The notes beneath the pieces were generated by a model that was given only the letters and a program-made list of their open reading frames with translations, had not been told where the DNA came from and made no database searches. A DNA stretch of 64,000 nt from the NCBI GenBank assembly GCA_043818055.1, contig JBDRGF010000159.1:17623-81622 (forward strand), in the 5' to 3' direction. The DNA comes from Pseudomonadota bacterium (GTDB taxonomy: Bacteria > UBA10199 > 2-02-FULL-44-16 > JBDRGF01). Below, one piece after another: positions 16,923 to 36,470 of this stretch. How positions within the stretch are numbered: the first letter of the stretch is position 1; each line of letters opens with the position of its first letter. A program made the position numbers and the translations under genes.

Positions 16923-16924
16923 GA

Positions 16925-19059: not shown

Positions 19060-19079
19060 CTGGGATAGCTCGTTTCGTG

Positions 19080-19670
19080 TTATCTTATTATGTATTCTAC
19101 TCTGCCGACGATCATGTCATTGATACAATGAAGAAGCAAATTATGAATGATCTCAACATAACCATAGGCCTTGGAGTTGATCCAAAAATTTATTGAACCC
19201 AATGCACTCAAAGGATTTTTTTGATCGAACCCTGAAAATGTGATCACGGTCATATTTTTTTTCAATGCCTCTTCACAGGCGTTCAAAATGTTCTTAGACG
19301 AGCCACTACTGCTGATAGCTATCAAAACATCACCCTTACAACCGTAGTGTTCAACGCCCTTTTGAAACATCCTTTCATATCCATAATCATTAGCATATGC
19401 CGTCATCATCGGAGACCCGCTGATCGTCATAGCCCTTAAACCAGCATTTTTCGTCAAATCGACAGACATGTGTTCAGCTATTGCCGCCGAAGCGCCATTT
19501 CCTATCAATATTATCTTAGCCCCCCTATTCTTCGTGGCAATAAGACACTTTGTGGCATCAATCAACTTAGCCTTGTTGTTCTTTTTTCCGATATGGGCTT
19601 CAACAATACTGTTAAAGTCACAAAAAAACTCATCCAAAAAACTATTATAAAACTCGTTCGTCTCATTCAT
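19080..19670 (-). CDS. gmhA: SIS-domain sedoheptulose-7-phosphate isomerase
   Basis: KIILIGNGASAAIAEHMSVDL...DVLIAISSSGSSKNIL, the SIS fold typical of GmhA. 196 aa. Confidence 0.75.
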   Translation of the reverse strand: MNETNEFYNSFLDEFFCDFNSIVEAHIGKKNNKAKLIDATKCLIATKNRGAKIILIGNGASAAIAEHMSVDLTKNAGLRAMTISGSPMMTAYANDYGYERMFQKGVEHYGCKGDVLIAISSSGSSKNILNACEEALKKNMTVITFSGFDQKNPLSALGSINFWINSKAYGYVEIIHNLLLHCINDMIVGRVEYIIR

Positions 19671-19706
19671 ATATTAAAACACCTATGGAGGAATCGTTAA
19701 ATAATG

Positions 19707-21008
19707 TCACTGACAATTGCCATGAAGCTCTGGATACAAGGTTTTATTGTTATTTTTCTCATATTCAGCCAAAATCTGTCTGAATTCGGGAATGGTCATA
19801 CTTCCTTTCTTCTCAAGTGCAGGATAATAAAAATTCATAAAATCCGGATCATCTGCCAAAAAGCAGGCGTGATATCCTCCAAATGGAGTTTCTTTCAGAC
19901 CTCTTTCCCGTGCAACAGACAGTGGCTCCTTCATAACATTTCCCATGTAAACATGCATGTTAGCACAATTCATGACATCACCGTAGGGGGTCATATTTAT
20001 CATTTCTTTCGTCCCGGGACATCCGAACTGCTTCCCGTAATTGAAGTTCAGATGCCTGGTAACCCAGTTGTATGGTTTTATAATTTTCTCGTAATTTTTG
20101 ACATCTTCCTTGTCGAGCATAACCTCCTTGTTATGGAAATTGCCTACTCCTTTGGCAAATAGTGTGCACAGAAGCACCTGTTCCCGTTCCGCAAGCTCCA
20201 ACAACTCCCTGAAACCATCTGTATAGAGATTACCTTTGTGAACGCAGCAATTAATAACAACTTTAATACCATATTTTTTACTCAACCTGATATTTTCAAC
20301 AACCTTTTCAAAGCTCCCAGCCTTTTTTCTGAAGGCATTATGAATTTCAGGATAACCGCTGTCGAGACTATAATTGATCGTATCAACACCCAACTCGTAA
20401 GCTCTTTTGATCTTTGCTTCGTCAACAAGATAACCATTGGTGGTAATAATAATATGATTCTTCATCGGTTGCCATGCCCTGATAAACTCCTCCCAGTTTT
20501 TTACAACAAAAGGCTCTCCGCCTTCCATGCCAAACGTAGTGGCACCAAGCTTCATCGCCTCTTTCACAACTCTCGCATAATCGGAAGGTTTCATCTCCTG
20601 TCTCTTCCCCGACTCATCAATCCTTGCACAAAGACAATGATTGCAACTAAAGTTACATCTAAAGCTAACTGCAAACTCTATCCCTCTTAGAATATATTTT
20701 TTCATTCCCAGGTAGTGATAAACTTTCCCTCGGATCTCATTCCAAATAATCCTGAAGGGATAGAATGGCTTTCTCCAATGGATCCCATATTTAAAACGAA
20801 TGCGCCATAACGTAAGGAATTTTTTAATTGGATTGTATTGCCGTGTAATTATTACCCGTTTGCGTTTTGTCTGTTCTTCGGCTTCTTTCAATTTTTTCAT
20901 TATACGTCTGGACTCTTCCTGTGTTTTGGCAATCAGCTTAACATCGTCTTCAAGCGTACTAAATACCGACACCTTGTTTTGTGACGCAAATACACTACTC
21001 TCAAGCAT
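19707..21008 (-). CDS. Radical SAM enzyme with auxiliary-cluster-like C-terminus and ~100-aa N-terminal charged/coiled extension
   Basis: FRCNFSCNHC CxxxCxxC and GGEPF. C-terminal Cys cluster CPGTKEMINMTPYGDVMNC. The N-terminal extension may be an artefact of an upstream start. Confidence 0.7.
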   Translation of the reverse strand: MLESSVFASQNKVSVFSTLEDDVKLIAKTQEESRRIMKKLKEAEEQTKRKRVIITRQYNPIKKFLTLWRIRFKYGIHWRKPFYPFRIIWNEIRGKVYHYLGMKKYILRGIEFAVSFRCNFSCNHCLCARIDESGKRQEMKPSDYARVVKEAMKLGATTFGMEGGEPFVVKNWEEFIRAWQPMKNHIIITTNGYLVDEAKIKRAYELGVDTINYSLDSGYPEIHNAFRKKAGSFEKVVENIRLSKKYGIKVVINCCVHKGNLYTDGFRELLELAEREQVLLCTLFAKGVGNFHNKEVMLDKEDVKNYEKIIKPYNWVTRHLNFNYGKQFGCPGTKEMINMTPYGDVMNCANMHVYMGNVMKEPLSVARERGLKETPFGGYHACFLADDPDFMNFYYPALEKKGSMTIPEFRQILAEYEKNNNKTLYPELHGNCQ

Positions 21009-21082
21009 AAAATCGCTCCTTTTTGATCTGTAATTATAGTTTTATACTTAACCGAACACCAAGGAATTCTTCTCTCAAATTA

Positions 21083-22078
21083 TCATAACAAACCCTCTTT
21101 TCTAAGATTTTCAACTGTTTTGCTAATCGACTTTCTCCAATTGGTAATAGCGTACCCCAACTCTTTTATGGCCAATTCCGAAGAATAAAAAAGATTCTGC
21201 CGAATCATCTCTCCTACTATTTTAGTAATCGGTGTTTCTTTCTTCAGCAAATTAAAGATCAACTCAGCACCATACCCAAGCCAGGGCAGTATAAATCTCG
21301 GCAGTGGAATTTTAGGCGAAATTCCTCCGGTGGCATAGGCTATATCGCTAAAATATTCTTTAAAAGATATATTATCCCCACCTAAGATATATTTTTTTCC
21401 AGTAATACCCTTTTCATAGCATAGGAAAAGACCTCTTACTAAGTCATCTATATCTGTAAGGCAGACCCCGCCTGAAGGATATATTTTCATCTTACCTTGA
21501 GCAATAGCCTTAAAATTATCTAACTGAGTTCTCTTGATACCGTGCGATCCTATCACATTTCCGGGACAAACGATGATCGAGTCTAACCCCAAGCCAACCT
21601 CTCTAAGGACGGCCTGTTCTCCCAGATATTTTGTATAAGCGTAGGGATCTCTGTAGTTGTTAAAAACAAATTTTTCATCGGCCACTTCTCCATGTTCAGG
21701 GACACCTACAGCCGACACCGAACTGATATGGATCAGACGCAATCCTCCTTTTTCTCTGGTCATTCTCGCAACATTGCTGGCAACTGCAATGTTAATGATC
21801 TCCCTTAAACGTTGATCTCTTTTCAATGAAGAGCCACACGCGGCAAAATTATAAACAGCAACACACCCCTCCATGGCTTTAGCCAGCGCCATATTGTCAG
21901 TTAAATCTCCTTCAAAAGGAGTAAAAGAAAAACCGGTTAGGTTCTTCATTGAAGATGATTTCCGATGGAAGACAACAACCTCTACATCCTTTTCCTGTAA
22001 ATATCTGACTAAATTACTGCCAATAAATCCTGTCCCACCTATAAGTAGAATCCTATTATTATTTGTTTTTCTACCCAT
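21083..22078 (-). CDS. NAD-dependent epimerase/dehydratase (SDR family)
   Basis: ILLIGGTGFIGSNLVRYL and YAYTKYLGE YxxxK. Confidence 0.75.
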   Translation of the reverse strand: MGRKTNNNRILLIGGTGFIGSNLVRYLQEKDVEVVVFHRKSSSMKNLTGFSFTPFEGDLTDNMALAKAMEGCVAVYNFAACGSSLKRDQRLREIINIAVASNVARMTREKGGLRLIHISSVSAVGVPEHGEVADEKFVFNNYRDPYAYTKYLGEQAVLREVGLGLDSIIVCPGNVIGSHGIKRTQLDNFKAIAQGKMKIYPSGGVCLTDIDDLVRGLFLCYEKGITGKKYILGGDNISFKEYFSDIAYATGGISPKIPLPRFILPWLGYGAELIFNLLKKETPITKIVGEMIRQNLFYSSELAIKELGYAITNWRKSISKTVENLRKEGLL

Positions 22079-22086
22079 ATATATAT

Positions 22087-22866
22087 CTATCCCTTTATGC
22101 CTTTAATTATCATAATGGGTCTCCGCATAAAATCTGGGTTATCCATTCCAATCAAACTATCATCTTCTCTAAAAAGCTTTCTTCTATTTAGAAAGATAAA
22201 TGGTTTAATTACCAAAGATACAAACACTTTATAACACCACAGAATTAATGGTTGCTTCTTTTCTAATTTGAAGGATATGTTTTCAGAATATCTATTTTCC
22301 TCAGGTTCCGGTTTATAACCAAAAAATGTCTGCAATTTAATGATAAACATTCTTAATTGCACCAAAGATGGAATTGCTCTAATTAGTTTATATTCCTTTA
22401 TTTTCAGATTTTTTTTAACAGCCGTAATTATAAATTCTTTAGTTATTCGGCATCCATTTCCCGGGCCTAGAGGAACTAAAAGCAATAGCTCTCCATTTTT
22501 GGTCAGTAAATTGGCAAAGTTTTCTATTGCGGTTTCCGGATGCTCTATATGTTCAAGTGCAGAAAGATTAATTATTTTTGTAAAGGATAATTTGGACAAT
22601 CTCTTGGAATGTTCTCCAATACTGAGGTTGCCAAGGTGAGTATGAAGAAAAACCAGATTATTCAAGTTATATATCTCTTCATTTCTTTTTATTCTTAAAA
22701 TATCCCAATCAACACCGACCACATTAGCAACTTTCTTAGCAACCTGTGAGCCAATATAACCATCCCCACATCCCGCATCCATTATAATGTCATCTTTCTT
22801 GAATTCTATAAAATTGGGCAGAATTTTTAGTTTCCACAATACATCTAAATGATATTTTGATAACAT
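22087..22866 (-). CDS. Class I SAM-dependent methyltransferase
   Basis: IIMDAGCGDGYIGSQVAKK motif I. Confidence 0.7.
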   Translation of the reverse strand: MLSKYHLDVLWKLKILPNFIEFKKDDIIMDAGCGDGYIGSQVAKKVANVVGVDWDILRIKRNEEIYNLNNLVFLHTHLGNLSIGEHSKRLSKLSFTKIINLSALEHIEHPETAIENFANLLTKNGELLLLVPLGPGNGCRITKEFIITAVKKNLKIKEYKLIRAIPSLVQLRMFIIKLQTFFGYKPEPEENRYSENISFKLEKKQPLILWCYKVFVSLVIKPFIFLNRRKLFREDDSLIGMDNPDFMRRPIMIIKGIKG

Positions 22867-22891
22867 TTATCACCTCCAATAGCTCACAAGA

Positions 22892-24265
22892 TCACAGTTT
22901 TTCCGTCGTCCATTGGATATAATCCCTGATGGCGCCCCAATTCCTTGTTTTATAGAAGTATGTTAAGACGGATTTGACTCCAACATAAGATCTATAATGT
23001 TTAAACATTGCCCTTCTACAAAAATTATAGAGAACATTTTCGTCAAGATCTTTTCTATAGATAGAAAAATACGGATATTCTTTATCTGAGGTAAAATCAT
23101 ATTTATCCTTGCATCGTTCAAATAGTGTGCTTCCGGGCAATGTCCTCAATACCCCCCAGCTAAGAAAGTTTGCTCTGATTTCCTTTTGTAGCTGAAGGCC
23201 CATTTTTATATCTTCATCAGTTTCATCCGGGTTTCCCACCATAAAAAAAGCAAATGTCGTTATTTTAAGTTCATGGCACCACTTAAAGGCATTTCGTATA
23301 TGCTCTACGGTATAGCCTTTCCTCAATGACTTCAGAACCCTCGGCGAACCGGACTCCACGCCCAAAACTATAAAATACAAACCGGCCTTTTTCATTTTGA
23401 CCAATAGTTCCCTTGTTAAAAAATCTACCCTAGTGGTGCAGGTCCATGGCAGGTTAATTCTTTCTTTAATTAACAAATCACAAATATCAAAGGTTCTTTT
23501 TTCCAAAATGGTAAAATCATCGTCGAAAAACCTTATCTCTCTTATTGGAAGCCTCCCCTTCCAGTATTTTATCTCTTCGATAATCCGATCGGGCGACATT
23601 GATCTAAGGGTATTCTTAAAAACCGCTTTCGAACAAAAAATACATCTGCCCGGACAACCTCTTGTTGTAACCATTGTTAAGGGAATACCATACCACCCGT
23701 ATGGAGGATGAATTTTATATTTGCTCGAATCAACCTGTTCTAGGTCTGGGAATGGAAGGGTATCAAGATTCTCTATGTATTCCCGGGGGGGATTAATTAT
23801 TATCTCATCTCGTTTCCTAAAAGCAATGCCTTTTATATGATCTAACCTGTCTGATTTTAAAGATTCTACAACATCTACTATTGTATTCTCACCTTCTCCA
23901 ATCGCCACCAAATCAATGGAATCTATCTCTTGCAATACTTCCCTCGGAAGAGCTGAGGGATGCGAACCACCAACAATTATTTTTATTGTCGGAAACCATG
24001 ATTTTAATTTATTCGCCAATTCCTTAACAGTAACATATCTTCTGGTAAAAAAAGTAATCCCGATTAAGTCCGGATTATATTCCAATATCTTTTTTCTGAG
24101 CGCATAGTCTGATAATGGCTCAGCGCAAAGATCCAGTATCAACGCCTCATGATTATTAGCTTTCAGGAATGAGGATAAATACGACAGACTCAATGCTGGA
24201 AAAGGGATATTTGATTTTTCAGGCAAGGGATTTATTAATACGACTTTCATCTTATTCCTTTCCAT
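22892..24265 (-). CDS. B12-binding domain radical SAM enzyme
   Basis: TRGCPGRCIFC CxxxCxxC with an N-terminal B12-binding-like domain. Confidence 0.8.
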   Translation of the reverse strand: MERNKMKVVLINPLPEKSNIPFPALSLSYLSSFLKANNHEALILDLCAEPLSDYALRKKILEYNPDLIGITFFTRRYVTVKELANKLKSWFPTIKIIVGGSHPSALPREVLQEIDSIDLVAIGEGENTIVDVVESLKSDRLDHIKGIAFRKRDEIIINPPREYIENLDTLPFPDLEQVDSSKYKIHPPYGWYGIPLTMVTTRGCPGRCIFCSKAVFKNTLRSMSPDRIIEEIKYWKGRLPIREIRFFDDDFTILEKRTFDICDLLIKERINLPWTCTTRVDFLTRELLVKMKKAGLYFIVLGVESGSPRVLKSLRKGYTVEHIRNAFKWCHELKITTFAFFMVGNPDETDEDIKMGLQLQKEIRANFLSWGVLRTLPGSTLFERCKDKYDFTSDKEYPYFSIYRKDLDENVLYNFCRRAMFKHYRSYVGVKSVLTYFYKTRNWGAIRDYIQWTTEKL

Positions 24266-24270
24266 TAAAA

Positions 24271-25407
24271 TCAGAATAAATTATTCATTTTAATTTCATA
24301 CCCGATGTTTAATTTTTGCATGCATTGCCGACAAATATCGAATGTATTATAATTTTCCCCGGTTACAAATAAACCGCGGATTTTCTGTAATTTTCTACTA
24401 TTCCAGATATCAGATAAATTGTCTTCGTTTATATTTCCCAAAACCAATCCTTTCTCGATTTTGTGAGAGAAGGCTGTGCAACATATTGAAACATCTCCGT
24501 TTATATATACCGCCAGTTGCAACCATGGTGACATGCATAAGAAGCGCCGTCCCCTGGTGTACTTAAACCATGGAAGATAGTAGTCGGAATCCTTAAGCCG
24601 ATACCCTTTTATGGAATCCTTCTCCATTTTATTGACGCCATTTAACAAGCTGGGAAGACTGCTCTTGAGACCAATCTTTGAGGAAAGCTTCTCGGCCTTC
24701 CTTAAAGTGGCAATGATTTTTTCCAGATCATAATTCTCTCTGAACTCCCTTGCGGTTTCTTCTGTAAATTGTGAAAAGTTTACCGGAACAAAACTAACGA
24801 ATGAACTATTTAACTCTTTTGCCAGATAGACAAATGGGATAATGTCGTCTAAGTTGTTTTTCTGAATAACAAAATCCAGACGGCATATTTCTCTTTTAAC
24901 ATCAAGTTCCTTTCTAATCCTATCCAGTCGTCTGATATTACCTAATAATTGATCAAATCCATTGTTTTTCCGTATCTTTTCGTAGGTCTCCTTTGTCGCT
25001 GCATCCATGGAAAATTTGATTAAATTGATGCCATTTTTTATTAAATTGTATGCAGTTCTTTCGTCAAGCAATAGACCGTTTGTAGTTATGAATGATTTAG
25101 ATTTATTTTCGCTAGCTATCCTCACCAATTCGCAGATGTCCTTATTCATCAACGGTTCAGCGGAAATGCCACCGAATAACATCATTTTTGGCTTTATCTG
25201 CGAATACAGCTTTTCTAATGTCTTAATGCTGAGAAATTGCTTCTCAGATTGCTTAAAATATGATTGATTCCGATAACACATTTTACAGCTCAAATTGCAA
25301 ACATTAGATGTGTCTACATTCACCGCAATCGGTTGATTTAGAATCTTTTTATGTTTTAAAATCAGCGAAATGAAAGCCTTTATATATTCTGACATAAACC
25401 GTCCCAT
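24271..25407 (-). CDS. Radical SAM enzyme with SPASM/twitch C-terminal domain
   Basis: VDTSNVCNLSCKMC and C-terminal CMSPW...ICC...CRQC Cys-rich SPASM-like region. Confidence 0.8.
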   Translation of the reverse strand: MGRFMSEYIKAFISLILKHKKILNQPIAVNVDTSNVCNLSCKMCYRNQSYFKQSEKQFLSIKTLEKLYSQIKPKMMLFGGISAEPLMNKDICELVRIASENKSKSFITTNGLLLDERTAYNLIKNGINLIKFSMDAATKETYEKIRKNNGFDQLLGNIRRLDRIRKELDVKREICRLDFVIQKNNLDDIIPFVYLAKELNSSFVSFVPVNFSQFTEETAREFRENYDLEKIIATLRKAEKLSSKIGLKSSLPSLLNGVNKMEKDSIKGYRLKDSDYYLPWFKYTRGRRFLCMSPWLQLAVYINGDVSICCTAFSHKIEKGLVLGNINEDNLSDIWNSRKLQKIRGLFVTGENYNTFDICRQCMQKLNIGYEIKMNNLF

Positions 25408-25409
25408 AA

Positions 25410-26498
25410 TTATTCAATTGTTATTGAAGAAAACTTTCCTTTTTTTAATTTATTCGCTATTAACAAGGCTATTTTTTCAAACCTGTATCCTAGAAAGTTT
25501 GTAACTGCATCAGTCAAACTAAGCCTTATGCCCGAAGGAATACCTACTATAGGGGGAGTGCCCAAGACAATACAATTACCGCATAGTGGCAACAGATCAA
25601 GATAATCTCCATCGAGCATTGATTGTCTTAATTTAAGCATTTTATTGCTGTTCCAAATATCTATTAATTTGTTTTCCTTGATATTTCCTATAACATATTC
25701 ATGATTGGTATCATAAACACATGGCACAACATCGCCATTCCAGGTGATACATACTGTACTCCACAATCGCGAGCACGGCGGAAAAAAGCGGTCATGTTTT
25801 CTAGGGTTAAAGGTATCTACACCCTCAAAAGTGCTACCCCAGGTTGAAACCTCCCTTAAACGGACCTCATCAATAAGACCATTGAATTTTTTCAAAAAAA
25901 CCTCTTTTTCTTCTCCACTACAATCCCCTATTTCGAGCATTAAGATGGATAATACGGTATAGGGAGATTTTTTTTCTTTTCTCTTTTTCAATTCTAGGAA
26001 GTAAAAAATGTTATCAAGGGTTTTTTCAAAATCAGCACCGACCCTTGCCTTTTCATAGGTTTCCTTATTAAACCCGTCAAAAGCAAAGCTTATACTGGCT
26101 ATTCCGGAATACAATAACTGCTCCACCTTTTCCTTAGTCAAGAGGGTAGCATTTGTATTTAGCAAGATCTTTATGTCATTAGAACTTGCATATCTTACCA
26201 TATCGAAGAATTGAGGGTGAAGCAGAGACTCGCCCCCAACTGCCAGGATGATTGCAGATGTATAATCCTTAACCTCATCTATTATCTTCTTGAACAGACC
26301 ATAATCCATATAGCCCTTTTTAACACTTGTCATTCCAGTCCCCGTAGGACACATAATACATTTCAAGTTGCAATGGTTGGTTGGCTCTAACCAAATAAAA
26401 CTAGGGGGATTATCTAAATGCACCTTTTTCCTGTGATAATTTTTTAAGGCCCTTATATTATTGAATAGTATTTTAATTTTTTTTATCATATCTGACAT
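25410..26498 (-). CDS. Radical SAM enzyme with SPASM/twitch C-terminal domain
   Basis: EPTNHCNLKCIMC and C-terminal CSRLW...PC...CGNC. Paralog of the preceding gene. Confidence 0.8.
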   Translation of the reverse strand: MSDMIKKIKILFNNIRALKNYHRKKVHLDNPPSFIWLEPTNHCNLKCIMCPTGTGMTSVKKGYMDYGLFKKIIDEVKDYTSAIILAVGGESLLHPQFFDMVRYASSNDIKILLNTNATLLTKEKVEQLLYSGIASISFAFDGFNKETYEKARVGADFEKTLDNIFYFLELKKRKEKKSPYTVLSILMLEIGDCSGEEKEVFLKKFNGLIDEVRLREVSTWGSTFEGVDTFNPRKHDRFFPPCSRLWSTVCITWNGDVVPCVYDTNHEYVIGNIKENKLIDIWNSNKMLKLRQSMLDGDYLDLLPLCGNCIVLGTPPIVGIPSGIRLSLTDAVTNFLGYRFEKIALLIANKLKKGKFSSITIE

Positions 26499-26512
26499 TT
26501 ATTAATTACTAA

Positions 26513-27964: not shown

Positions 27965-28967
27965 CCTGTTTTATCCGCAAGAAATCGCATCTTCTGCAGA
28001 AGTCAAATTCTTCCTGGTGTTTCCTGAGATAATTGAATTTCTCACCACACCATACTTCTCTTATGTCCTTTTCCAGCATGTTGCCCATATTTAGTTCTTT
28101 AGAAAAACAACAAGGATAGACATCGCCATTTTGAGCAATAAATACGAAATCTTGAAATCTGTAACAATATGTATCGAGTCTTAGAAGAAACTTGAAATAC
28201 TTGTAAAAAAACCCTTTCCATCCATCGAATATTTGATCTTGGAGATAGTCAATTCTTATCTTGTATCTCTTTCTTAACCTAGCAAATTCATTAAATATCT
28301 CTCTTTCTTCTATCAAGTTAGGCCGTTTCATGTCAGGGACAAACCTTAAATCAACGCGAACGACATTGATCCTATCAACACAATTTTCAGCACCCCACTT
28401 GATTATCTCATAAACATCTTGCACTTTATCGCTAAACAGAATGGGCTGAAGCGTAACTCTTGGTGTTAAAGAACCCAGTTCCTTTTTCATCTCAATCAAT
28501 CTTTTTATGTTCCTTAGCGCTTTTACATTTGGATGGGATATTTCACTGTTTTCCTTCAGACTTTCAATGGAAAACGAAATCCAGTCCAGTTTTGACCGAA
28601 TTACTTTCTCCATCTTCTCTTCATCTTCTAACAACAAACCATTTGTCGTTATCTGAACTTCCAAACCTCTTTCCTTACAGTATCTTATGGCCTCATAAAA
28701 TCTAGGGTATGTTAATGTTTCTCCAATTCCCACCAAAATCACAGTCTTTACCGCTTCAAGTCTATCTACCACTTTCTTGAATAACTCGTAATCCATATGA
28801 GTTCGTTCGATATCAATATAATTTCTGATGCACATCTTACAATCTAAATTACAACAATTGGTAATACATATCTGTGCAAAACGAGGTGAGCTCTCTGGTA
28901 TATGCAAGATTTTCCTTATCGCTGTAGAGATAAAGCTTCTACTCATATTAATAAACAAGCCTCTCAT
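27957..28967 (-). CDS. Radical SAM enzyme with SPASM/twitch C-terminal domain
   Basis: ICITNCCNLDCKMC and C-terminal PCC...CRRCDF. Confidence 0.75.
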   Translation of the reverse strand: MRGLFINMSRSFISTAIRKILHIPESSPRFAQICITNCCNLDCKMCIRNYIDIERTHMDYELFKKVVDRLEAVKTVILVGIGETLTYPRFYEAIRYCKERGLEVQITTNGLLLEDEEKMEKVIRSKLDWISFSIESLKENSEISHPNVKALRNIKRLIEMKKELGSLTPRVTLQPILFSDKVQDVYEIIKWGAENCVDRINVVRVDLRFVPDMKRPNLIEEREIFNEFARLRKRYKIRIDYLQDQIFDGWKGFFYKYFKFLLRLDTYCYRFQDFVFIAQNGDVYPCCFSKELNMGNMLEKDIREVWCGEKFNYLRKHQEEFDFCRRCDFLRIKQVV

Positions 28968-30012
28968 CTAAATTCTCCTGACTTTGCTGGGCACGCTTGA
29001 TTAGCTCTTTATTAAAGATATAATAAAGATAGCTAATGAACGCTACAAAAATTAAAGACGCCTCACCAAGTATTCTCGAAACCACTACAAAAATCCCAGC
29101 CTCAGGCGCATTAACACCCATCAATACCAAAACCCCAAACCAACTGACATCAAGTGATCCAAGAGCCCCTGGAATAAATGTTGCAATAATTATGACCTGA
29201 ACCACGGCAGAGCCTAATAAGATATAGTAAAAAGGGATGTTGATCTGTAAAGCTAAAATAATAATATAAACCCGTAATGTTATGCATAATTGTTTCAAAC
29301 AGGAGTAAAAAAATAATCTAATGGCAATACTTCTACTAAATGGGTTGAGTTTTTCGGACATTATAGAATTGTTCTGAAACCTTCTTTTGAAAAAGAAAAC
29401 CTTGGAAACGATCTTAAGTAAAAACCTATAAACCCGTATTATCAATCCGAATATCATTCCATTTTTATAAACAATCAAACCAAACAATGAGAGGATCGAC
29501 ACAACAATAAATGTAACCGAGGCCTCTAAAGATAAAATGTCAACAAAAAAAAGCAATGATGGGATAACCAGTAAAATGAGTATTAATAAATCAAATAATT
29601 GTTCGATAAAGATTGCCAGTACCCCTTTGTCTGCTGGTATTTTATGTAATAACTTCATGGAAATAGTTTTAAGGCCATAATTTCCACTTTGTGGTATTAT
29701 AGTATTCAATATCATAGCTATTGCACAATTGTATAAAAAATAACCTTTGGGGATTTTACTAATGTCCACTAAATTATTTAAAATCATTTTCCATTTTAAA
29801 CCTGAAATACTAAGAATGAAAAAATTTGTAATTACTATAGCAATGAGATAATAATATTTAATATTACGAAGATTATTTATAACCATTTTTGGTGAAATGC
29901 CGGCGAGCCTTATCATCAAGACAATCAAAAAAAAACCCAGAACAGCTAAAGATGAATTAATGATAATTTTATAATGTTGTTTAAAAAAAATTTTACCTGA
30001 AATTAATTTCAT
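28948..30012 (-). CDS. UPF0104 / lysyl-PG-synthase-TM-like 'flippase-like' membrane protein
   Basis: 354 aa with about 8 TM segments and the N-terminal pattern typical of the YbhN/UPF0104 family. Confidence 0.5.
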   Translation of the reverse strand: MKLISGKIFFKQHYKIIINSSLAVLGFFLIVLMIRLAGISPKMVINNLRNIKYYYLIAIVITNFFILSISGLKWKMILNNLVDISKIPKGYFLYNCAIAMILNTIIPQSGNYGLKTISMKLLHKIPADKGVLAIFIEQLFDLLILILLVIPSLLFFVDILSLEASVTFIVVSILSLFGLIVYKNGMIFGLIIRVYRFLLKIVSKVFFFKRRFQNNSIMSEKLNPFSRSIAIRLFFYSCLKQLCITLRVYIIILALQINIPFYYILLGSAVVQVIIIATFIPGALGSLDVSWFGVLVLMGVNAPEAGIFVVVSRILGEASLIFVAFISYLYYIFNKELIKRAQQSQENLDERLVY

Positions 30013-30041
30013 TCTTTATCCCCATCTCAACACCTATCCAA

Positions 30042-31301
30042 TCACTTGTTCAACCTCATTCTGAAAAAATCTTTTACACTGCTGGCAATGTAGCGAATGT
30101 CTTTTTCAGTCAAGCTGGGATGGCAAGGCAAGTAGATAATTTTGCCGTTAAGCTTACTGGCATTAGGAAAAACACTGTTAACATAAGGTTGAAAACGCTT
30201 CATCTGAGTGATATCTTCGGCCGATTCATCTTGGGCATCAATTTTGTTTTTTAGAAGATATTCTTGAAGGTCTTTTTTTCTTTCCGTCCAAATAGCATAG
30301 TGGACACAAACATGTTCTCTATCGGTTGGATCGGATGGGATATGAAGCTCTTTGATACTTTTTAGTTCATTATTTAGAATTTTGAGATACTCTCGACGCC
30401 GTTGATTAGTTGAGTCAATCGTCATAATCTGGCGCAGTCCCATCCTTGCCTGAATACTATACATATCTATCTTGAAATCTTCTGGGACGCCGTTGTAGTA
30501 AGGTTTTTTGATTCGAAACCACGAAGCAAACCTTTCATCTTCTTCTATCTGATATCTGTAACTAAGTGGAAAGAGAGTAAATCTATGTATCAAAGGCGTA
30601 TTGAGAAATTTGAGCAAGCAGCCTTTGAAAATACCATGGTAAAGATTCTTCACCGAAATAGTTTTGAAGTCTCGTTTCAACTCACGTAGTCGTTCAATAA
30701 AGATTTGGTCGTTGGAAGTGACCATGCCTCCACCAAATCCGTAAAAGGATTTTCCGTATCCAAAACTGAAAGCACCAATGTCAAAAGAACCAACTCGCCT
30801 ATCCTGAAACCGGCTACCACAAGAGCGAGCACAGTCTTCAATAACACGGAGATTATACTTCCGAGCTACATCCATAACAGCCTTTATATCGGCAGGAAGA
30901 CCGTTAAGATGCGCGAGCAAAATGACTCGGGTTTTGGAGGTGATAGCATTTTCTATTTTTGAGCTATCAATATTCAATGTTTCAAAGTCAACATCAACAA
31001 ATATTGGCTTCAATCCGGCCAAGAGAACCACAGCTGCATCCACCCAAAAGGTAAATGCAGGAAGAATAACCTCATCACCATCCTCTAAATTCAAGGCCTT
31101 AAGGCAAAAGTAGAGCGCGCTGCGGCATTTTGGAAAGGCTACTGCTTCTCTGGTGCCAATAAATCGGGCGTAGGCCCTTTCAAATTCAGATAACAATAAC
31201 CGACCCCCGGCCATAGATGGATTGAGAACGCGAAACAGGGCTGACATTACCTCGACTGTTTTAAGATCAACCCAGACCCTAGGATATGCCTTAAACATCA
31301 T
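30042..31301 (-). CDS. DegT/DnrJ/EryC1/StrS-family PLP-dependent aminotransferase (second copy)
   Basis: DVARKYNLRVIEDCARSCGSRFQDRRVGSFDIGAFSFGYGKSF covers the lysine-bearing region. Confidence 0.8.
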   Translation of the reverse strand: MMFKAYPRVWVDLKTVEVMSALFRVLNPSMAGGRLLLSEFERAYARFIGTREAVAFPKCRSALYFCLKALNLEDGDEVILPAFTFWVDAAVVLLAGLKPIFVDVDFETLNIDSSKIENAITSKTRVILLAHLNGLPADIKAVMDVARKYNLRVIEDCARSCGSRFQDRRVGSFDIGAFSFGYGKSFYGFGGGMVTSNDQIFIERLRELKRDFKTISVKNLYHGIFKGCLLKFLNTPLIHRFTLFPLSYRYQIEEDERFASWFRIKKPYYNGVPEDFKIDMYSIQARMGLRQIMTIDSTNQRRREYLKILNNELKSIKELHIPSDPTDREHVCVHYAIWTERKKDLQEYLLKNKIDAQDESAEDITQMKRFQPYVNSVFPNASKLNGKIIYLPCHPSLTEKDIRYIASSVKDFFRMRLNK

Positions 31302-31423
31302 TCACCAACCATTTCTTCACATTTCTGATAATAAAATTGTCCCAAATCCAGACCCTTCTCTTCCATTTACGGTTTATCAATCAATATACCATCACGCTAT
31401 TTTACTCTCCAACAACCTATCTA

Positions 31424-31546
31424 TTACACCATGTGATATATCACGTACTTCCGTGCCGCTTCTGCTGACATTACCAATCTAGATTCGATTTCTTCGACCA
31501 CTTGCCGTTTAAACCCTTTCTCAAATTTCCTTCTCGTCACTCCCAT
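31424..31546 (-). pseudogene. Remnant of an IS3-family transposase orfA (N-terminal HTH only)
   Basis: A 40-aa ORF MGVTRRKFEKGFKRQVVEEIESRLVMSAEAARKY resembles the IS3/IS911 OrfA N-terminus, and no remainder of the IS is present. Confidence 0.4.
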
Positions 31547-31736
31547 CACAAATCTCCCCTCTAGCTAAGTTCTCTGAGATTTGCAACATCCTTTCTCATT
31601 TTTTAGTCCAAAATCTCAACCCATAAGTATGCATATCAAAGTAAACCAAGAGGCAATATCGAGTTCGAGGCACACGAAACTGAATTGATCAATACTACAT
31701 GCATTTTTTCACTTTAGAAAAATATTTATTCAAGCG

Positions 31737-31907
31737 ATGACGTAACGGCACTGCCTCCATTACCAAAAATGAAGATGTTTACCGCATTTTCATACGCTAG
31801 AATAAGTTCAGAAATAAAACCCTTAAACTCTCTCTCATCAACTTTATCAAAGATGTTGATCAGTTCGGTAAAATATTGTCTCAAGAAGACCTCTTTCATA
31901 ATAAACT
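31737..31907 (-). pseudogene. gmhA: Truncated gmhA (N-terminal 56 aa of sedoheptulose-7-P isomerase)
   Basis: MKEVFLRQYFTELINIFDKVDEREFKGFISELILAYENAVNIFIFGNGGSAVTSSLE* parallels the N-terminus of the intact gmhA at 19080..19670. It sits directly downstream of hddA. Confidence 0.5.
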
Positions 31908-31908
31908 A

Positions 31909-32877
31909 TTACTCGCGGAATAACAATTTGGAACCTTCCGAATCGATGCTAAATGGTAGCGACCTACACCCCATTTTCTGTTCCAATTGTCCATGATCCA
32001 CCGCATAAACAAGCATAAAACCAGCCCCGCCAGCGCCCAGAAGCTTACCACCCGACGCTCCACCCTCTATTGCCTTTTTGTACATTGCATCGATCTCATG
32101 ATTAGAAATACCTGACGCAAGTTCCCTTTTGTAACACCACCCTTTATTTAAATATTCTCCGACTAAATCGTACTTACCCTTCGAGAGTTTGTCCTTTAGA
32201 TCATCTGCCATGGAAGCCATGTCTTTCACGCACAGCATCATTGAATCCTGAGATAAGTTATCTCTTTGTCTGGAAAGAATATCTGCCGATCGCCTCTCTC
32301 CACCCGTGTAATATAAACGTAAACATTCTTCAAACTTCTTAATAGTAACGATGTCCAATTCGATCGGATACACATTTACAGTTTCATCCTTATTAAATCT
32401 AATATAATTAAGTCCTCCGTAGGCAACGGCATATTGGTCCTGTTTTCCAACAGGATCTCCAAGAACATCCATCTCTATTTCACATGATTCCCTAGCCAAT
32501 CGTTCCTTTGAAACTTCAATTCCCCTATAAGCATAGAGAGCATTCAAAAGGCCGACTGTAAACGAACTGGATGAACCAAGGCCAGTACCCTTAGGGACAT
32601 CAGCAAAGCTTGCTATCTCGATACCTTTATCAATTTCCACTTTTTCCAAACAAGCCTTAACAATCGGATGCTTAATATCTTTAACGTTGGAAACATCTTC
32701 GGTTTTAGAATATTTTACGCGTATCTTGTCATGAAAGTAAGGATGAATCACTATGTACATGTACTTTCTAATCGCAGCACTCACAACAGATCCATAGCCA
32801 CTCTTCGAATAAAATTCTCTCAAATCGCTTCCTCCACCGACAAAACTCACTCTAAAAGGAGTTCTCGTTATTATCAT
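31909..32877 (-). CDS. hddA: GHMP-family D-glycero-alpha-D-manno-heptose 7-phosphate kinase
   Basis: MIITRTPFRVSFVGGGSD...PKGTGLGSSSSF GHMP motifs. Confidence 0.7.
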   Translation of the reverse strand: MIITRTPFRVSFVGGGSDLREFYSKSGYGSVVSAAIRKYMYIVIHPYFHDKIRVKYSKTEDVSNVKDIKHPIVKACLEKVEIDKGIEIASFADVPKGTGLGSSSSFTVGLLNALYAYRGIEVSKERLARESCEIEMDVLGDPVGKQDQYAVAYGGLNYIRFNKDETVNVYPIELDIVTIKKFEECLRLYYTGGERRSADILSRQRDNLSQDSMMLCVKDMASMADDLKDKLSKGKYDLVGEYLNKGWCYKRELASGISNHEIDAMYKKAIEGGASGGKLLGAGGAGFMLVYAVDHGQLEQKMGCRSLPFSIDSEGSKLLFRE

Positions 32878-32878
32878 A

Positions 32879-34213
32879 CTATATCGCCATCCTACTGTTT
32901 AAAATCACATTGACCGCTTCTTCCAAATTATCGCAGATAAAATCTGGGTTTATTGAAGTATTTTGATTTTTATCATCGTTATTTTTCCGAAGTAATATAG
33001 ATCTCAACCCTGCATTAATAGCGGCTTGAATATCTATCACTGAATCACCTATCATCCATGAGGATACAAGATCGATGTTATATTGGCTAGCCGCTTTCAT
33101 TATCATTCCCGTCTTCGGTTTTCTACAATCACAGACAATCTTGAACAAAGGATTTTCTTCAGGATATCCCTTATCGGGATGATGCGGACAGAAATAAATC
33201 TCGTCAACATATACCCCGTTTTTACCCAGCAAGGTCTCAAACTTATCGTGAATACTTTTTAGCGTTTCAAGAGAACAAAGATTTCTGGCTACGACTGGCT
33301 GATTCGTAACCACAATTGACAGATAGCCAGATTCGTTGATACGCTTGATGGCCGGTGTTGAAAACGGTAACAACTCGAGATCCTCCGACCTATGCAACAG
33401 ATCTACCTCCTTTACCAAGGTGCCGTCTCTATCCAAAAAGATCGCCGGTCTCTTATTTTTCTTTGAAAGTCTTTTAATTTTACCGTTCGCAAAATCTGAC
33501 TTGACCTTTTCCAGCCTATCGACCGTTCCTACATCTTTGATATACTCAGTGGTTTTGTATCCGCAAAGTTTTTCGAAATTCAGCATGCGAGGAAAGACAT
33601 CTTTAACAAAATCCGAAGCGACACCTTTGCTGATGTATTTAAAAATCCGCGGCGAAAGAACGTACATTGCGGCATTGATCTGATTTGGATAGCATTCCCT
33701 ATCGACGCTCTTTGGCAAAAAACCGACTATCTCCGATTTTACGTCTGTCAACACGATATCGCTGTCATATGGATGATCGTTGGGGTGAACAACAAGAGTT
33801 GCTGCTGCGCATTTTTCTTTATGATATTCAAAAAGATCGTCAAGATCCAGATCGAACATGACATCGCCATATGCAAGAAGAAAGTCCTCATCTATCTCAT
33901 TTTCCAGCGCCTTCAAGCAGCCCGATGTCCCCATTGGCTTATTTTCCAGATAGTGTCTAATATCGATTCCGTGTTCGCTACCGTTGCCAAAATAATCTTC
34001 AATCACATTTCCCATGTATCCTGAAAGAATGATCACTTCCTTTATCCCATGCCTTCTCATGACGTCGATCTGATGCTCGAGTATCGGCTTGCCGGCAATT
34101 TTCAGCATCGGTTTAGGGCAATCGAATGTCAAAGAATGAAGACGCTCCCCACGTCCTCCTGCCAGTATCACTGCTTTGCGAACAGAATGTTGTAACCGAA
34201 CTAAGCTTCTCAT
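32879..34213 (-). CDS. Bifunctional sugar-1-phosphate nucleotidyltransferase (HddC-like) / HAD D,D-heptose-1,7-bisphosphate phosphatase (GmhB-like)
   Basis: N-terminal AVILAGGRGERL...KPML NTP-transferase domain. C-terminal FLDRDGTL...VTNQ HAD motifs I/II of the GmhB type. Confidence 0.7.
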   Translation of the reverse strand: MRSLVRLQHSVRKAVILAGGRGERLHSLTFDCPKPMLKIAGKPILEHQIDVMRRHGIKEVIILSGYMGNVIEDYFGNGSEHGIDIRHYLENKPMGTSGCLKALENEIDEDFLLAYGDVMFDLDLDDLFEYHKEKCAAATLVVHPNDHPYDSDIVLTDVKSEIVGFLPKSVDRECYPNQINAAMYVLSPRIFKYISKGVASDFVKDVFPRMLNFEKLCGYKTTEYIKDVGTVDRLEKVKSDFANGKIKRLSKKNKRPAIFLDRDGTLVKEVDLLHRSEDLELLPFSTPAIKRINESGYLSIVVTNQPVVARNLCSLETLKSIHDKFETLLGKNGVYVDEIYFCPHHPDKGYPEENPLFKIVCDCRKPKTGMIMKAASQYNIDLVSSWMIGDSVIDIQAAINAGLRSILLRKNNDDKNQNTSINPDFICDNLEEAVNVILNSRMAI

Positions 34214-36459: not shown

Positions 36460-36470
36460 ATCTTCCTATT

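Follow-up and report, generated by a model that had tools for sequence, protein, structure and literature searches.

The window, which is the whole 64,000-nucleotide stretch of DNA that was analysed, encodes two sugar-activating proteins in consecutive genes on the reverse strand. The first gene (32879–34213) is one open reading frame of 444 amino acids, in which a sugar-1-phosphate nucleotidyltransferase domain (NTP_transferase, residues 13–241) is fused to a GmhB-like HAD-IIIA phosphatase domain (residues 255–440), as assigned by Pfam and NCBIfam. The DRDGT motif and the zinc loop CPHH...CDCRKP are present and intact in the HAD part. Across 22 homologues the junction between the domains is conserved, with D240, G244, S250, K251, R255, P256 and A257 invariant or nearly so, and the fusion is therefore genuine and not a frameshift artefact. 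The initial annotation had singled out the fusion as a notable feature. The architecture is nevertheless very common: homologues number in the thousands, species-genome matches come to at least 586, and the genes next to it are usually those for a GHMP kinase and a SIS protein.

A single nucleotide separates the stop codon of the fusion from the start of the second gene (31909–32877, reverse strand), which encodes an HddA-like GHMP sugar kinase of 322 amino acids, assigned as an anomeric kinase. It consists of GHMP_kinases_N and GHMP_kinases_C domains and carries the intact GHMP motif VPKGTGLGSSSS as well as GAGGAGF. HddA is its top NCBIfam match; in the PDB the best matches are heptokinases (3k85, 4usm and 4n3o, E ~1e-37), ahead of a fucokinase at 1e-17. 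Alignment with the fusion-adjacent kinases of loci L001, L005, L173 and L174 in other genomes gives 400–476 bits.

A comparison of the two fusion domains with known families gives different results for each. The HAD domain groups with GmhB (PDB entry 2gmw, 8.5e-29, versus 1.2e-15 for HisB-N). The transferase domain resembles ManB/GMPP, UGPase and MurU more than it resembles HddC, with 164 bits for ManB/GMPP-type models versus 92 bits for HddC in NCBIfam, and 8.5e-24 for GMPPB versus 1.5e-14 for HddC in the PDB; the nucleotide is therefore uncertain. The initial annotation had coupled two outcomes that would speak against a heptose pathway, a transferase domain grouping with ManC or RmlA-type enzymes and a HAD domain grouping with a phosphatase other than GmhB, and only the first is seen. 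None of the four domains reaches its curated equivalog cut-off: the kinase scores 155.6 against 600 for HddA, the transferase domain 92 against 300 for HddC, the HAD domain 157.9 against 178 and 119.7 against 149.6 for GmhB, and an intact SIS protein encoded at 19080–19670 scores 95 against 209–276 for GmhA. Because the domains fall below these cut-offs and the transferase domain is ManB/GMPP-like, the labels "GDP" and "manno-heptose" are inferred. The GDP-heptose pathway of the initial annotation thus stands in part: all four activities of an alpha-type (GHMP-kinase) NDP-heptose pathway appear to be encoded, each most like its heptose-pathway counterpart or a close relative, and GDP and the exact sugar are assigned with less certainty.

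A truncated and an intact SIS gene

Immediately after the kinase, inside a 607-bp gap, lies the remnant of a GmhA-type SIS gene (31726–31899, reverse strand), which the initial annotation had overlooked. It comprises 57 N-terminal codons and ends just past the sequence GNGGSA. By tblastn, it shows 47% identity to residues 15–71 of the protein encoded by the post-kinase SIS gene in L005 (E 4e-14), and at least 20 further SIS proteins of cassettes match it too. For the other ~130 amino acids, no frame gave a match. The rest of the gene is replaced by a non-coding scar of 424 bp (31302–31725), the sole large intergenic gap in the operon and unique within the window. A 41-residue open reading frame in the scar (31424–31549) has a weak helix-turn-helix match (BrkDBD, E 0.001) that is below the cut-off, and a transposase origin is therefore not established. 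The isomerase gene of the cassette itself has been destroyed and is now a stump in situ.

The intact SIS gene (19080–19670, reverse strand) encodes a full-length GmhA-family protein of 196 amino acids. GmhA and DiaA (E 2e-20) are its sole relatives of known structure. On one side the gene borders a MoaA-like radical-SAM gene (19707–21008), and on the other a DUF218 gene and an HpnJ-like B12 radical-SAM gene (16925–18412). Sequence identity is 33% with E. coli GmhA, 28–34% with cassette SIS proteins, 50% with the L172 protein and 59% with P0248, and the closest relatives (59%, 50% and 40% identity) sit in neighbourhoods of the nonulosonic-acid or CDP-hexose type. The gene is missing from the equivalent position of the syntenic loci L169 and L171. 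Equivalents of H61, D94, S119, S121, S124, H175 and H180 are retained, and the equivalent of the catalytic Glu65 is an aspartate. This change is part of a covarying E65D/Q172E pair common to 23 of 56 aligned SIS sequences, mostly from genes no more than 3 kb away from a fusion. The protein belongs to a GmhA subfamily that is distinct from the cassette SIS. The initial annotation was exact in its coordinates for the kinase and fusion (31909–34213) and for a full gmhA-family gene at 19080 among radical-SAM genes, and the domains were confirmed; its description of the latter as a relocated gmhA does not hold, since the cassette's own copy is still in place as a stump and the gene at 19080 is of a different GmhA-like lineage.

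The radical-SAM island

The genes around the cassette described below are all encoded on the reverse strand. Upstream of the fusion are a DUF2304 small membrane protein with three hydrophobic segments (34217–34585) and a PpgS-like GT2, probably a polyprenyl-phosphate glycosyltransferase (34611–35363), whose best NCBIfam match is PpgS (93.8 versus 370). Here and in L001–L003 the GT2 gene immediately precedes DUF2304 and the fusion, and the arrangement is partly present in L004; DUF2304 is paired with the GT2 in L001–L004, L170 and L171.

Downstream of the scar is a 419-residue DegT-family aminotransferase with a divergent C-terminal half (30042–31301). Its PDB matches are, in order, glutamine-scyllo-inositol transaminase (2e-46), the unnamed putative aminotransferase 7n63, and then QdtB, perosamine synthetase and BtrR/S; orthologues of 465–560 bits occur in L001, L007, L088/L168, L169, L170 and L171. 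It is followed by an LPG_synthase_TM or flippase-like protein with ~9 hydrophobic segments (28948–30012; orthologue in L171, 203 bits), a 336-residue SPASM radical-SAM enzyme with the motif CNLDCKMC (27957–28967; 343–356 bits in L169, L171 and L168) and a 483-residue B12-binding radical-SAM enzyme (26513–27964; best PDB matches OxsB 2.5e-16 and AprD4 3.2e-16; 572–725 bits in L168, L169 and L171). The next gene encodes a BtrN/DesII-like SPASM enzyme of 362 residues, SPASM362 (25410–26498; BtrN 4.4e-13, DesII 1.9e-6). Among the matches listed it has about 100 homologues at 44–71% identity, all unnamed, from Brocadiales, Magnetococcales, Omnitrophota, Desulfobacterales and Nitrospirota. Another SPASM enzyme (24271–25407, 378 residues), a second B12-binding radical-SAM enzyme (22892–24265, 457 residues; relatives of ~210 bits in L169 and L171), a class I SAM methyltransferase (22087–22866, 259 residues) and an HpnA-like SDR (21083–22078, 331 residues; TIGR03466, 197 bits versus a cut-off of 368) complete this part of the island. 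In Scalindua (L169), an orthologue of the SDR (386 bits) comes after the kinase.

The radical-SAM gene beside the intact SIS gene encodes a MoaA/BlsE-like enzyme of 433 residues (MoaA 3.5e-10, cytosylglucuronate decarboxylase 5.9e-8), with orthologues of 454–653 bits in L007, L088/L168, L089, L169, L170 and L171. On the other side, the DUF218 (ElyC/SanA-like) protein (18403–19059) has one N-terminal membrane segment and is found in L005, L007, L169, L170, L171 and L174. The 495-residue HpnJ-like B12-binding enzyme matches TIGR03471 end to end (391 bits versus a cut-off of 577.6), and its best PDB match is AprD4 (7.3e-20); its orthologues in L005, L169, L171, L172, L173 and L174 score 483–821 bits. 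Further downstream are a 330-residue GT2 glycosyltransferase with two C-terminal membrane segments (15930–16922) and its conserved partner, a 211-residue SAM methyltransferase (15262–15897; 236–280 bits in L168, L169, L170 and L171). This GT2 has orthologues of 376–428 bits in three loci: in L169 and L171 they come directly after the HpnJ-like gene, and the third is in L168. Beyond them lies a 533-residue membrane protein with ~9 hydrophobic segments and a soluble tail of ~140 residues (13648–15249); it has no Pfam or NCBIfam match and is tentatively a GT-C or polymerase-like transferase.

Six radical-SAM genes are situated between the kinase and the intact SIS gene, one just past the latter, and an eighth at 1152–2585; all eight retain the CxxxCxxC motif. 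In the PDB, the radical-SAM enzymes and the aminotransferase come closest to enzymes of carbohydrates or cyclitols (BtrN, DesII, BlsE, AprD4, OxsB and inosose aminotransferases). Genes for rmlABCD and for a third sugar pathway are also present in the window, and either pathway could alternatively supply the radical-SAM substrates.

Recurrence of the cassette and its proposed role

Among 45 species genomes with enough flanking sequence, 37 have a GHMP kinase and 31 a SIS gene no more than 3 kb from the fusion; 28 have both. The set recurs as neighbours in many genomes, and the arrangement is therefore a real unit and not due to chance. Radical-SAM neighbours were found for just one of these 45 more distant cassettes. 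All of the relatives at 53–65% identity (L001/L002, L005, L007, L173 and L174) have B12 or SPASM radical-SAM neighbours, as does L172, which is placed by the score of its fusion orthologue (511 bits) and not by identity. Several of these loci also contain an orthologue of DUF218 or of the 419-residue aminotransferase, and the closest relatives of the cassette, which lie beside orthologues of the window's radical-SAM genes, come from Nitrospirota, Desulfobacterota, one Scalindua genome and uncultured metagenome bacteria. The radical-SAM link of the cassette is clade-specific and recurrent. In L005, L172, L173 and L174 the order is HpnJ-like gene, GT2, fusion and kinase, and in L001/L002 the aminotransferase lies between fusion and kinase, followed by a SPASM362 orthologue. 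At the head of L169, from Scalindua, stand an HddA-like kinase and an HddC/ManB-like transferase that is not fused; orthologues of 14 genes from the block come next, in broadly the same order. A transferase and a GHMP kinase head five of the six informative loci with a SPASM362 orthologue. These conserved neighbourhoods in other phyla lend support to the link with radical-SAM tailoring that the initial annotation had suggested. A literature search found no paper on a radical-SAM-linked heptose cassette.

We conclude that an ordinary activation module is accompanied here by a putative, uncharacterised radical-SAM tailoring route. Our preferred reading, to which we give a probability of roughly 0.55, is that an alpha-type NDP-heptose module heads a conserved tailoring island (~15262–34213) whose product would be delivered to a surface glycan via polyprenyl phosphate. 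A GmhA-family isomerase, presumably the intact SIS paralogue or a housekeeping gmhA elsewhere in the genome, would convert sedoheptulose-7-phosphate to glycero-manno-heptose-7-phosphate. The HddA-like kinase would then phosphorylate the anomeric position, the GmhB-like domain would remove the 7-phosphate, and the fused transferase domain would form the NDP-heptose, probably with GDP because the domain is GMPP/ManB-like and HddC-like. In the island, the BtrN/DesII-like SPASM enzyme may oxidise a sugar hydroxyl to a ketone that the DegT aminotransferase aminates; the AprD4/OxsB/HpnJ-like B12 enzymes and the HpnA-like SDR could carry out deoxygenation, rearrangement or C-methylation, and the SAM methyltransferases would supply methyl groups. 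Delivery on a polyprenyl-phosphate carrier would involve the PpgS-like GT2 with DUF2304, the flippase-like protein, DUF218 and the multi-pass membrane protein. The nearest solved structures of the kinase, HAD domain and SIS protein are heptose-pathway enzymes, and an anammox bacterium in which GDP-heptose was detected has been described (bioRxiv 10.1101/2020.12.03.409086).

Rather unlikely, in our view, is that plain NDP-heptose is added unmodified to a surface glycan by a glycosyltransferase, while the radical-SAM block acts on something else, such as a dTDP-6-deoxyhexose made in the same locus, a polyprenyl-linked sugar or a lipid, the two sharing only a glycan locus. The presence of rmlABCD and of a further pathway with an aminotransferase, a C-methyltransferase and an SDR would fit this, as would the 44 of 45 cassettes without radical-SAM neighbours and the more distant SPASM homologues, which accompany GT2, SDR and B12 genes and rarely a cassette. 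In L168 the radical-SAM and aminotransferase genes occur as a block, yet no heptose cassette lies up to 10 kb away; in its place are a CTP_transf_3 gene and an APH-like kinase. In contrast, the genes keep a tight order that recurs across phyla: in four loci the HpnJ-like gene is found two genes upstream of the fusion, in L001/L002 the aminotransferase is inserted between fusion and kinase, and the Scalindua block is headed by the transferase and kinase pair. In addition, rml genes are not conserved beside the block in the syntenic loci.

It is improbable that the four activities use a ketose phosphate other than sedoheptulose-7-phosphate and yield a different NDP-sugar. In lincomycin biosynthesis LmbN, LmbP, LmbK and LmbO produce a GDP-octose by the same logic of isomerase, kinase, phosphatase and guanylyltransferase. 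All domains here score well under the heptose-specific cut-offs, the SIS proteins show the distinct D65/E172 signature, and some cassettes have transketolase-family genes nearby (a split one in L007, matches in L014 and L075). However, heptose enzymes are the top matches of the kinase, the phosphatase and the isomerase alike, and the window contains no transaldolase or dedicated transketolase; its Dxs gene (39990–41918) is probably housekeeping because it exceeds the Dxs equivalog cut-off (775 versus 466).

The truncated SIS gene with its scar, and the nonulosonic-acid or CDP-hexose type clusters in which the nearest relatives of the intact SIS protein are found, could also mean that the module is decaying, its pathway having fallen out of use, and that the intact protein serves another function, but this is very doubtful given that the kinase, the fusion and all downstream genes are intact open reading frames with complete motifs and tight spacing, that C. 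jejuni capsule loci likewise depend on a gene encoded elsewhere for their GmhB step, and that in L007 the fusion and kinase likewise occur as a pair, the only SIS gene of the same lineage being distant. The significance of the preferred reading lies in the uncharacterised link between ordinary activation genes and radical chemistry, in a block conserved across several bacterial phyla.

Layout of the glycan locus and identity of the activation genes

The minus strand of the window carries a single glycan locus of about 37 tightly spaced genes at 1152-41918. It differs in composition from the flank at 50-64 kb, with a GC content of 0.33-0.43 compared with 0.45-0.485; most of the first 40 kb is at 0.33-0.40. 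In transcription order the strand run is headed by dxs and an FAD oxidase gene (38792-41918), followed by the rhamnose genes rmlA, rmlC, rmlD and rmlB (35389-38795), a PpgS-like GT2 gene and a DUF2304 gene. Next come a fusion of a sugar-1-phosphate nucleotidyltransferase with a GmhB-like HAD phosphatase (32879-34213) and a GHMP kinase gene (31909-32877). The sole large gap in the operon, of 607 bp, lies between the kinase and the aminotransferase gene DegT419 (30042-31301), after which a flippase-like LPG_synthase_TM protein and five radical-SAM genes are encoded in the order SPASM, B12, SPASM, SPASM, B12; these include B12_483 (26513-27964) and SPASM362 (25410-26498). A methyltransferase gene, an HpnA-like SDR gene and the MoaA-like radical-SAM gene rSAM433 (19707-21008) lead to a SIS gene of the GmhA family (19080-19670), which is followed by DUF218 (18403-19059), an HpnJ-like B12 radical-SAM gene (16925-18412), a GT2, a methyltransferase and a 533-residue membrane protein. 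A further aminotransferase/C-methyltransferase/SDR pathway (7844-13597) comes next, and Wzx, more glycosyltransferases and an eighth radical-SAM gene are last. The CxxxCxxC motif is kept in all eight radical-SAM proteins of the window.

The initial annotation assigned the kinase, the fusion and the SIS gene to a heptose activation pathway. Its observation is confirmed, with coordinates and family-level identities correct for all three genes, and its interpretation is partly supported. The top NCBIfam family of the kinase is HddA, although the score of 155.6 bits is below the equivalog cut-off of 600. Among solved structures, the heptokinases 3k85, 4usm, 4n3o and 4usk match at E values of 4e-37 to 8e-35, and the next family, fucokinase, follows at 5e-17. 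The best solved relatives are thus the heptokinases of Bacteroides, Burkholderia (WcbL) and Campylobacter, some twenty orders of magnitude ahead of fucokinase, and by sequence the protein is a GHMP kinase closest to the known heptokinases.

The fusion is a single uninterrupted open reading frame, and it is genuine, as the junction of its two halves is conserved in 22 homologues. The HAD half contains all HAD-IIIA motifs (DxDxT, T, K and GDxxxD) and a Cys-His-Cys-Cys zinc loop; Asp-261, Asp-263, Thr-265, Thr-303, Lys-365, Asp-390, Asp-394, Cys-342, His-344, Cys-361 and Cys-363 are invariant across the 22 homologues. Its match to E. coli GmhB (2gmw, 8.5e-29) is far better than that to HisB-N (1.2e-15). 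The scores fall slightly under the GmhB cut-offs (157.9 versus 178 and 119.7 versus 149.6), and the half passes just the generic HAD-IIIA and histidinol-phosphatase domain models.

The transferase domain behaves differently from the HAD half. It scores 164 bits with the ManB-type model (Rv3264c-type mannose-1-phosphate guanylyltransferase), 122 with archaeal GlmU, 121 with MurU and 91.9 with HddC, for which the cut-off is 300. Structural matches are to UGPase (1.2e-32), GMPPB (8.5e-24) and HddC (5xhw, 1.5e-14, covering residues 14-133 only), so that UGPase, MurU and GMPPB are all nearer than HddC. Judged by these similarities, the domain does not group with HddC over other sugar-1-phosphate nucleotidyltransferases. 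They favor a guanylyltransferase acting on a manno-configured sugar but prove neither the nucleotide nor the sugar, and structure prediction would not settle this specificity because the candidate families share the same folds. Placement of both fusion domains outside the heptose families would speak against the heptose assignment; the transferase half does lie outside, nearer to ManB/GMPP, whereas the HAD half lies inside, with GmhB.

No cassette domain in the window reaches its curated cut-off. The same is true of the tested cassette proteins from other genomes, including the kinases of a Thermodesulfovibrionales locus (L005, 151 bits) and of Scalindua (L169, 217 bits), which also miss the HddA cut-off, and for this reason the cut-offs may simply be narrow. 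For every cassette domain, the greatest similarity is to an enzyme of the heptose pathway or to a near relation of such an enzyme.

Occurrence of the fusion and fate of the isomerase gene

The fusion had been singled out as a notable feature, but it proves to be ordinary. A protein database search gave 8000 scored homologues that share the two-domain architecture, and a scan of one genome per species gave at least 586 confirmed matches, which among those listed come from Bacteroidales, many Firmicutes, Treponema, Leptospirales, Acidobacteriota, Verrucomicrobiota and Proteobacteria. Source annotations describe the protein as D,D-heptose bisphosphate phosphatase or HAD-IIIA hydrolase; our literature search found no biochemical study of the fused form. 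Of 45 loci from the species-genome matches, each with at least 4 kb on either side of the fusion, 37 have a GHMP kinase gene within 3 kb, 31 have a SIS gene and 28 have both. These counts identify fusion, GHMP kinase and SIS gene as a standard cassette. The cassette of the window thus belongs to a very common, database-annotated kind, and its fusion is not special.

The homologues occur in a form of about 430 residues and a form of about 628 residues with a third, P-loop kinase-like domain. The latter accounts for about half of the closest homologues; the C-terminal P-loop reads GGxARSGKS and gives weak PRK/uridine-kinase Pfam matches. In three such relatives (L007:10001-11911, L172:16621-18552 and L173:10001-11884) the GHMP kinase gene still adjoins.

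The SIS gene at 19080 had been described as a relocated gmhA, which is incorrect. The 607-bp gap behind the kinase opens with a 57-codon reading frame (31726-31899) that terminates just past the sequence GNGGSA. Over the first 57 aligned residues, this stump shares 47% identity with the SIS protein encoded behind the kinase of a Thermodesulfovibrionales genome (E = 4e-14, from a small search), and it matches more than 20 further cassette SIS proteins. The remaining ~130 residues have no counterpart in any frame. The cassette's own isomerase gene was therefore destroyed in situ. The 424 bp after the stump are unique. A transposase origin of this scar was considered; the one hint is a weak helix-turn-helix match below cut-off, the scar is not repeated within the window, and none of the fetched loci has a homologue of it.

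The intact SIS protein represents a different lineage. It does not match the stump, and its identity is 28-34% with cassette SIS proteins and 33% with E. coli GmhA, compared with 50-64% with a large family of ~189-residue SIS proteins. The syntenic loci of Scalindua and Omnitrophota lack this gene at the equivalent position. The surroundings could be read for three relatives. One, 59% identical, is in a nonulosonic-acid type cluster (L175); one, 50% identical, adjoins CDP-glucose genes (L172); and one, 40% identical, adjoins PtmE-like and CMP-sugar synthetase genes (L007, Desulfobacula phenolica). The last two loci each also contain a fusion and kinase pair 8-16 kb away, which in L007 has no SIS gene of its own. 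The "relocated" gmhA is thus a pseudogene plus a paralogue, and much of the original finding, namely a commonplace fusion and the pseudogenization of gmhA beside a paralogue, is shown to be ordinary. The cluster at L175:8240-14930 also encodes a DHQ-synthase-like protein of the sugar-phosphate cyclase type and two CMP-sugar synthetase-like proteins, and it contains three B12 radical-SAM genes. A role for the 19080 protein as a PtmF-type legionaminic-acid enzyme, suggested by the PtmE-like and CMP-sugar synthetase genes beside its relatives in L007 and L175, was rejected since PtmF is an oxidoreductase of 326 residues (PMC4481668).

The paralogue has SIS_2 and SIS domains. GmhA or DiaA accounts for 15 of its 16 structural matches with E ≤ 0.001, and a transcriptional regulator for one weak match (2.5e-4). 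It scores below all GmhA equivalog cut-offs (94.9 versus 276, 90.7 versus 209.45 and 88.6 versus 265). These matches place it as a SIS fold with GmhA as its closest characterized relatives. It was aligned with 54 SIS proteins of the fetched loci, which for the most part are encoded beside fusion genes, and with an E. coli GmhA reference whose numbering agrees with the published residues. Relative to this reference, His-61, His-180, Asp-94 and the phosphate-binding serines Ser-119, Ser-121 and Ser-124 are kept. Among the catalytic and metal residues, Glu-65 and Gln-172 are replaced by Asp and Glu, respectively, and Thr-120 of the phosphate loop is replaced by Ser. The 56 sequences fall into two covarying classes at positions 65/120/172: Glu/Thr/Gln in 33, including E. 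coli, and Asp/Gly-or-Ser/Glu in 23, including the window. The residues are compatible with a metal-dependent isomerase.

The genes of the window share the four predicted activities and the GHMP-kinase (alpha-anomer) logic with the known GmhA/HddA/GmhB/HddC pathway, and the kinase, phosphatase and isomerase match the enzymes of that pathway best among solved structures. They differ in that the transferase is fused to the phosphatase and is nearer to ManB/GMPP than to HddC, in that all domains are under the curated cut-offs, and in the Asp and Glu of the SIS protein where GmhA has Glu-65 and Gln-172.

Radical-SAM genes beside the cassette and a proposed route

The closest relatives of the fusion come from Nitrospirota, Desulfobacterota and metagenomes, and all those inspected at 53-65% identity have radical-SAM neighbors. 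In contrast, only 1 of 45 more distant cassettes has a radical-SAM gene within 10 kb. Loci L001/L002 contain the GT2, DUF2304 and fusion genes, an orthologue of DegT419 between fusion and kinase, an orthologue of SPASM362 after the kinase, and more SPASM and B12 genes. DUF218 and/or B12 genes are present in L005, L172, L173 and L174, and in all four the order is HpnJ-like gene, GT2, fusion, kinase; their HpnJ-like orthologues score 483-512 bits versus 130-180 for paralogues. The D. phenolica locus has the fusion, kinase, DUF218, two B12 genes and orthologues of rSAM433, DegT419 and SPASM362.

At the start of the Scalindua locus, the transferase is HddC/ManB-like and not fused, and an HddA-like kinase accompanies it. 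Orthologues of 14 genes of the window block follow in broadly the same order, among them those of the HpnJ-like gene (821 bits), rSAM433 (653) and DegT419 (547). An Omnitrophota locus (L171) is equally syntenic, its head being outside the fetched flank. Close homologues of SPASM362 (44-71% identity) among the matches listed come from Brocadiales, Magnetococcales, Omnitrophota, Desulfobacterales, Acidobacteriota and Ca. Magnetobacterium, and none of these proteins has a name. A metagenome scan with the SPASM362 alignment gave mostly distant homologues (30-43%) in mixed contexts and two close ones, and carries little weight either way.

Orthologues of SPASM362, rSAM433, DegT419, the HpnJ-like gene and DUF218 thus adjoin a transferase and GHMP kinase head in L001/L002, L005, L007, L169, L172, L173 and L174. 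Such a head is present in five of the six informative loci. The exception is L168 (identical to L088). Here orthologues of rSAM433, DegT419, SPASM362, SPASM336 and B12_483 are accompanied by genes for a CTP_transf_3 protein and an APH/choline-kinase-like protein, whereas no heptose cassette lies within 10 kb. The radical-SAM block may take sugars that are activated in different ways. As read from gene content, there is a conserved island of radical-SAM and heptose genes in unrelated phyla, with orthologues recognizable in anammox Planctomycetota, Nitrospirota, Desulfobacterota, Omnitrophota and Magnetococcales. For the earlier proposal that heptose is the substrate of radical tailoring, the recurrence of this gene coupling across phyla is in favor; against it is the block without a cassette in L168.

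To our knowledge, the conserved association of this cassette clade with an island rich in radical-SAM genes, seen in several phyla, has no earlier description. Heptose tailoring is known to us only through SDR and cupin chemistry, for example in Campylobacter capsules, and we know of no radical-SAM enzyme that acts on an NDP-heptose or a heptose-containing glycan. We found no such system in literature searches that paired radical SAM with heptose, O-antigen, nucleotide sugars, GHMP kinase or anammox glycans. For Campylobacter, SDR and cupin enzymes, not radical-SAM enzymes, are reported (PMC10680097). GDP-heptose (bioRxiv 10.1101/2020.12.03.409086) and oligo-heptose S-layer glycans have been reported in the anammox bacterium Kuenenia, in papers without mention of radical-SAM enzymes; this shows that the alpha-type pathway operates in the anammox group.

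The nearest solved relatives of the tailoring proteins are BtrN and DesII for SPASM362, MoaA and cytosylglucuronate decarboxylase for the MoaA/BlsE-like rSAM433, AprD4 for the HpnJ-like protein, OxsB and AprD4 for B12_483, and scyllo-inositol and 2-deoxy-scyllo-inosose aminotransferases, QdtB and perosamine synthetase for DegT419. By this comparison, the tailoring proteins stand closest to radical enzymes for carbohydrates or cyclitols and to the partners of such enzymes. In aminoglycoside tailoring, BtrN is a dehydrogenase working with the BtrS/BtrR aminotransferase, and AprD4/AprD3 is a deoxygenation pair. The window resembles these systems, and the GenK-type B12 methylases, through its relatives of BtrN, AprD4, OxsB and the inosose aminotransferases, and also has an SDR and methyltransferases. 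The similarities are distant (E = 1e-13 to 1e-20), however, and the genes lie in a locus for a cell-envelope glycan, together with Wzx and glycosyltransferase genes, rather than in an antibiotic cluster.

A second parallel is the hopanoid side-chain system (HpnI GT2, HpnK, HpnJ and HpnA), in which HpnJ, according to a proposal, turns the glucosamine that bacteriohopanetetrol already carries into a cyclitol ether by contracting the pyranose ring of the sugar (PMC9204698). The HpnJ-like gene of the window (391 bits, matching over its full length) likewise adjoins a GT2, and an HpnA-like SDR is present; the notion borrowed from this system is the remodeling of an attached sugar by a radical-SAM enzyme. 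On score and context the gene is nevertheless not assigned to HpnJ: its score is below the TIGR03471 cut-off of 577.6, and hopanoid context is absent, as no squalene-hopene cyclase, hpnH, hpnI or hpnK was found among the annotated genes of the window. Its partner is a heptose-activation cassette and not UDP-GlcNAc.

The PpgS-like GT2 and the adjoining DUF2304 protein recall polyprenyl-phosphate sugar systems (mycobacterial PpgS/Rv3632, ArnC/ArnT and GtrA/B/C), Rv3632 being linked to DUF2304. Flippase-like and multi-pass membrane proteins are also present, although the GT2 scores 93.8 bits, far below the PpgS cut-off of 370. The lincomycin GDP-octose pathway uses an isomerase, a GHMP kinase, a HAD phosphatase and a guanylyltransferase (LmbN, LmbP, LmbK and LmbO). 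The likeness lies in the enzyme order and in its use on a higher-carbon sugar; an LmbR-type transaldolase is missing from the window.

On the basis of the nearest solved relatives and the HpnJ precedent, a tailoring scheme can be drawn. A radical dehydrogenase and an aminotransferase would give an amino sugar, the AprD4-, OxsB- and HpnJ-like enzymes with the SDR could carry out deoxygenation, rearrangement or methylation, and SAM methyltransferases would finish the sugar. A polyprenyl-phosphate carrier and periplasmic transfer are suggested by the PpgS-like GT2 and its DUF2304 neighbor, together with the flippase-like protein, the DUF218 protein of ElyC/SanA type and the multi-pass 533-residue protein. 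We tentatively propose, with a probability of roughly three in ten, that an undescribed radical-SAM route remodels an activated or already-transferred heptose in anaerobes and microaerophiles of at least five phyla. This route would yield a higher-carbon sugar that is aminated, deoxygenated and/or C-methylated, conceivably even a ring-contracted cyclitol-type unit by analogy with HpnJ, exported on polyprenyl phosphate to decorate the envelope. In that case the island would stand for carbohydrate radical chemistry and an envelope component that are both new, in anaerobes of environmental importance. The question is testable, as D. phenolica, which has a version of the island, is cultured.

Other genes of the locus and its borders

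The genes at 7844-13597 encode three SDR epimerase/dehydratases, a 151-residue dTDP-sugar-isomerase-like protein, a DegT aminotransferase and a TylC3-type C-methyltransferase (Methyltransf_13/14), which suggests a branched or amino 6-deoxyhexose alongside rhamnose. The eighth radical-SAM gene (1152-2585) closes the locus, behind two GT2 genes and one for a 583-residue methyltransferase. Its product is B12-binding, and the top family is TIGR04013 with 64 bits only.

At the opposite end (38792-41918), dxs and the L-2-hydroxyglutarate-oxidase-like FAD enzyme gene (332 bits versus 299) are joined to the glycan strand run by a 16-nt separation and a 4-nt overlap. Dxs (39990-41918) was considered as the chain-extending transketolase of an octose route; this was rejected, and the protein is taken as housekeeping, because it passes the Dxs equivalog cut-off (775 versus 466). 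Between the glycan locus and the higher-GC flank, the region 41939-46626 encodes two short HATPase_c_4 fragments (162 and 159 residues) and a nucleotidyltransferase/HEPN protein. It also contains a 67-residue HicB-like reading frame and a 105-residue four-helix-bundle-like one, both judged by eye, and has the appearance of a junction where small genes of toxin-antitoxin or defense type are frequent.
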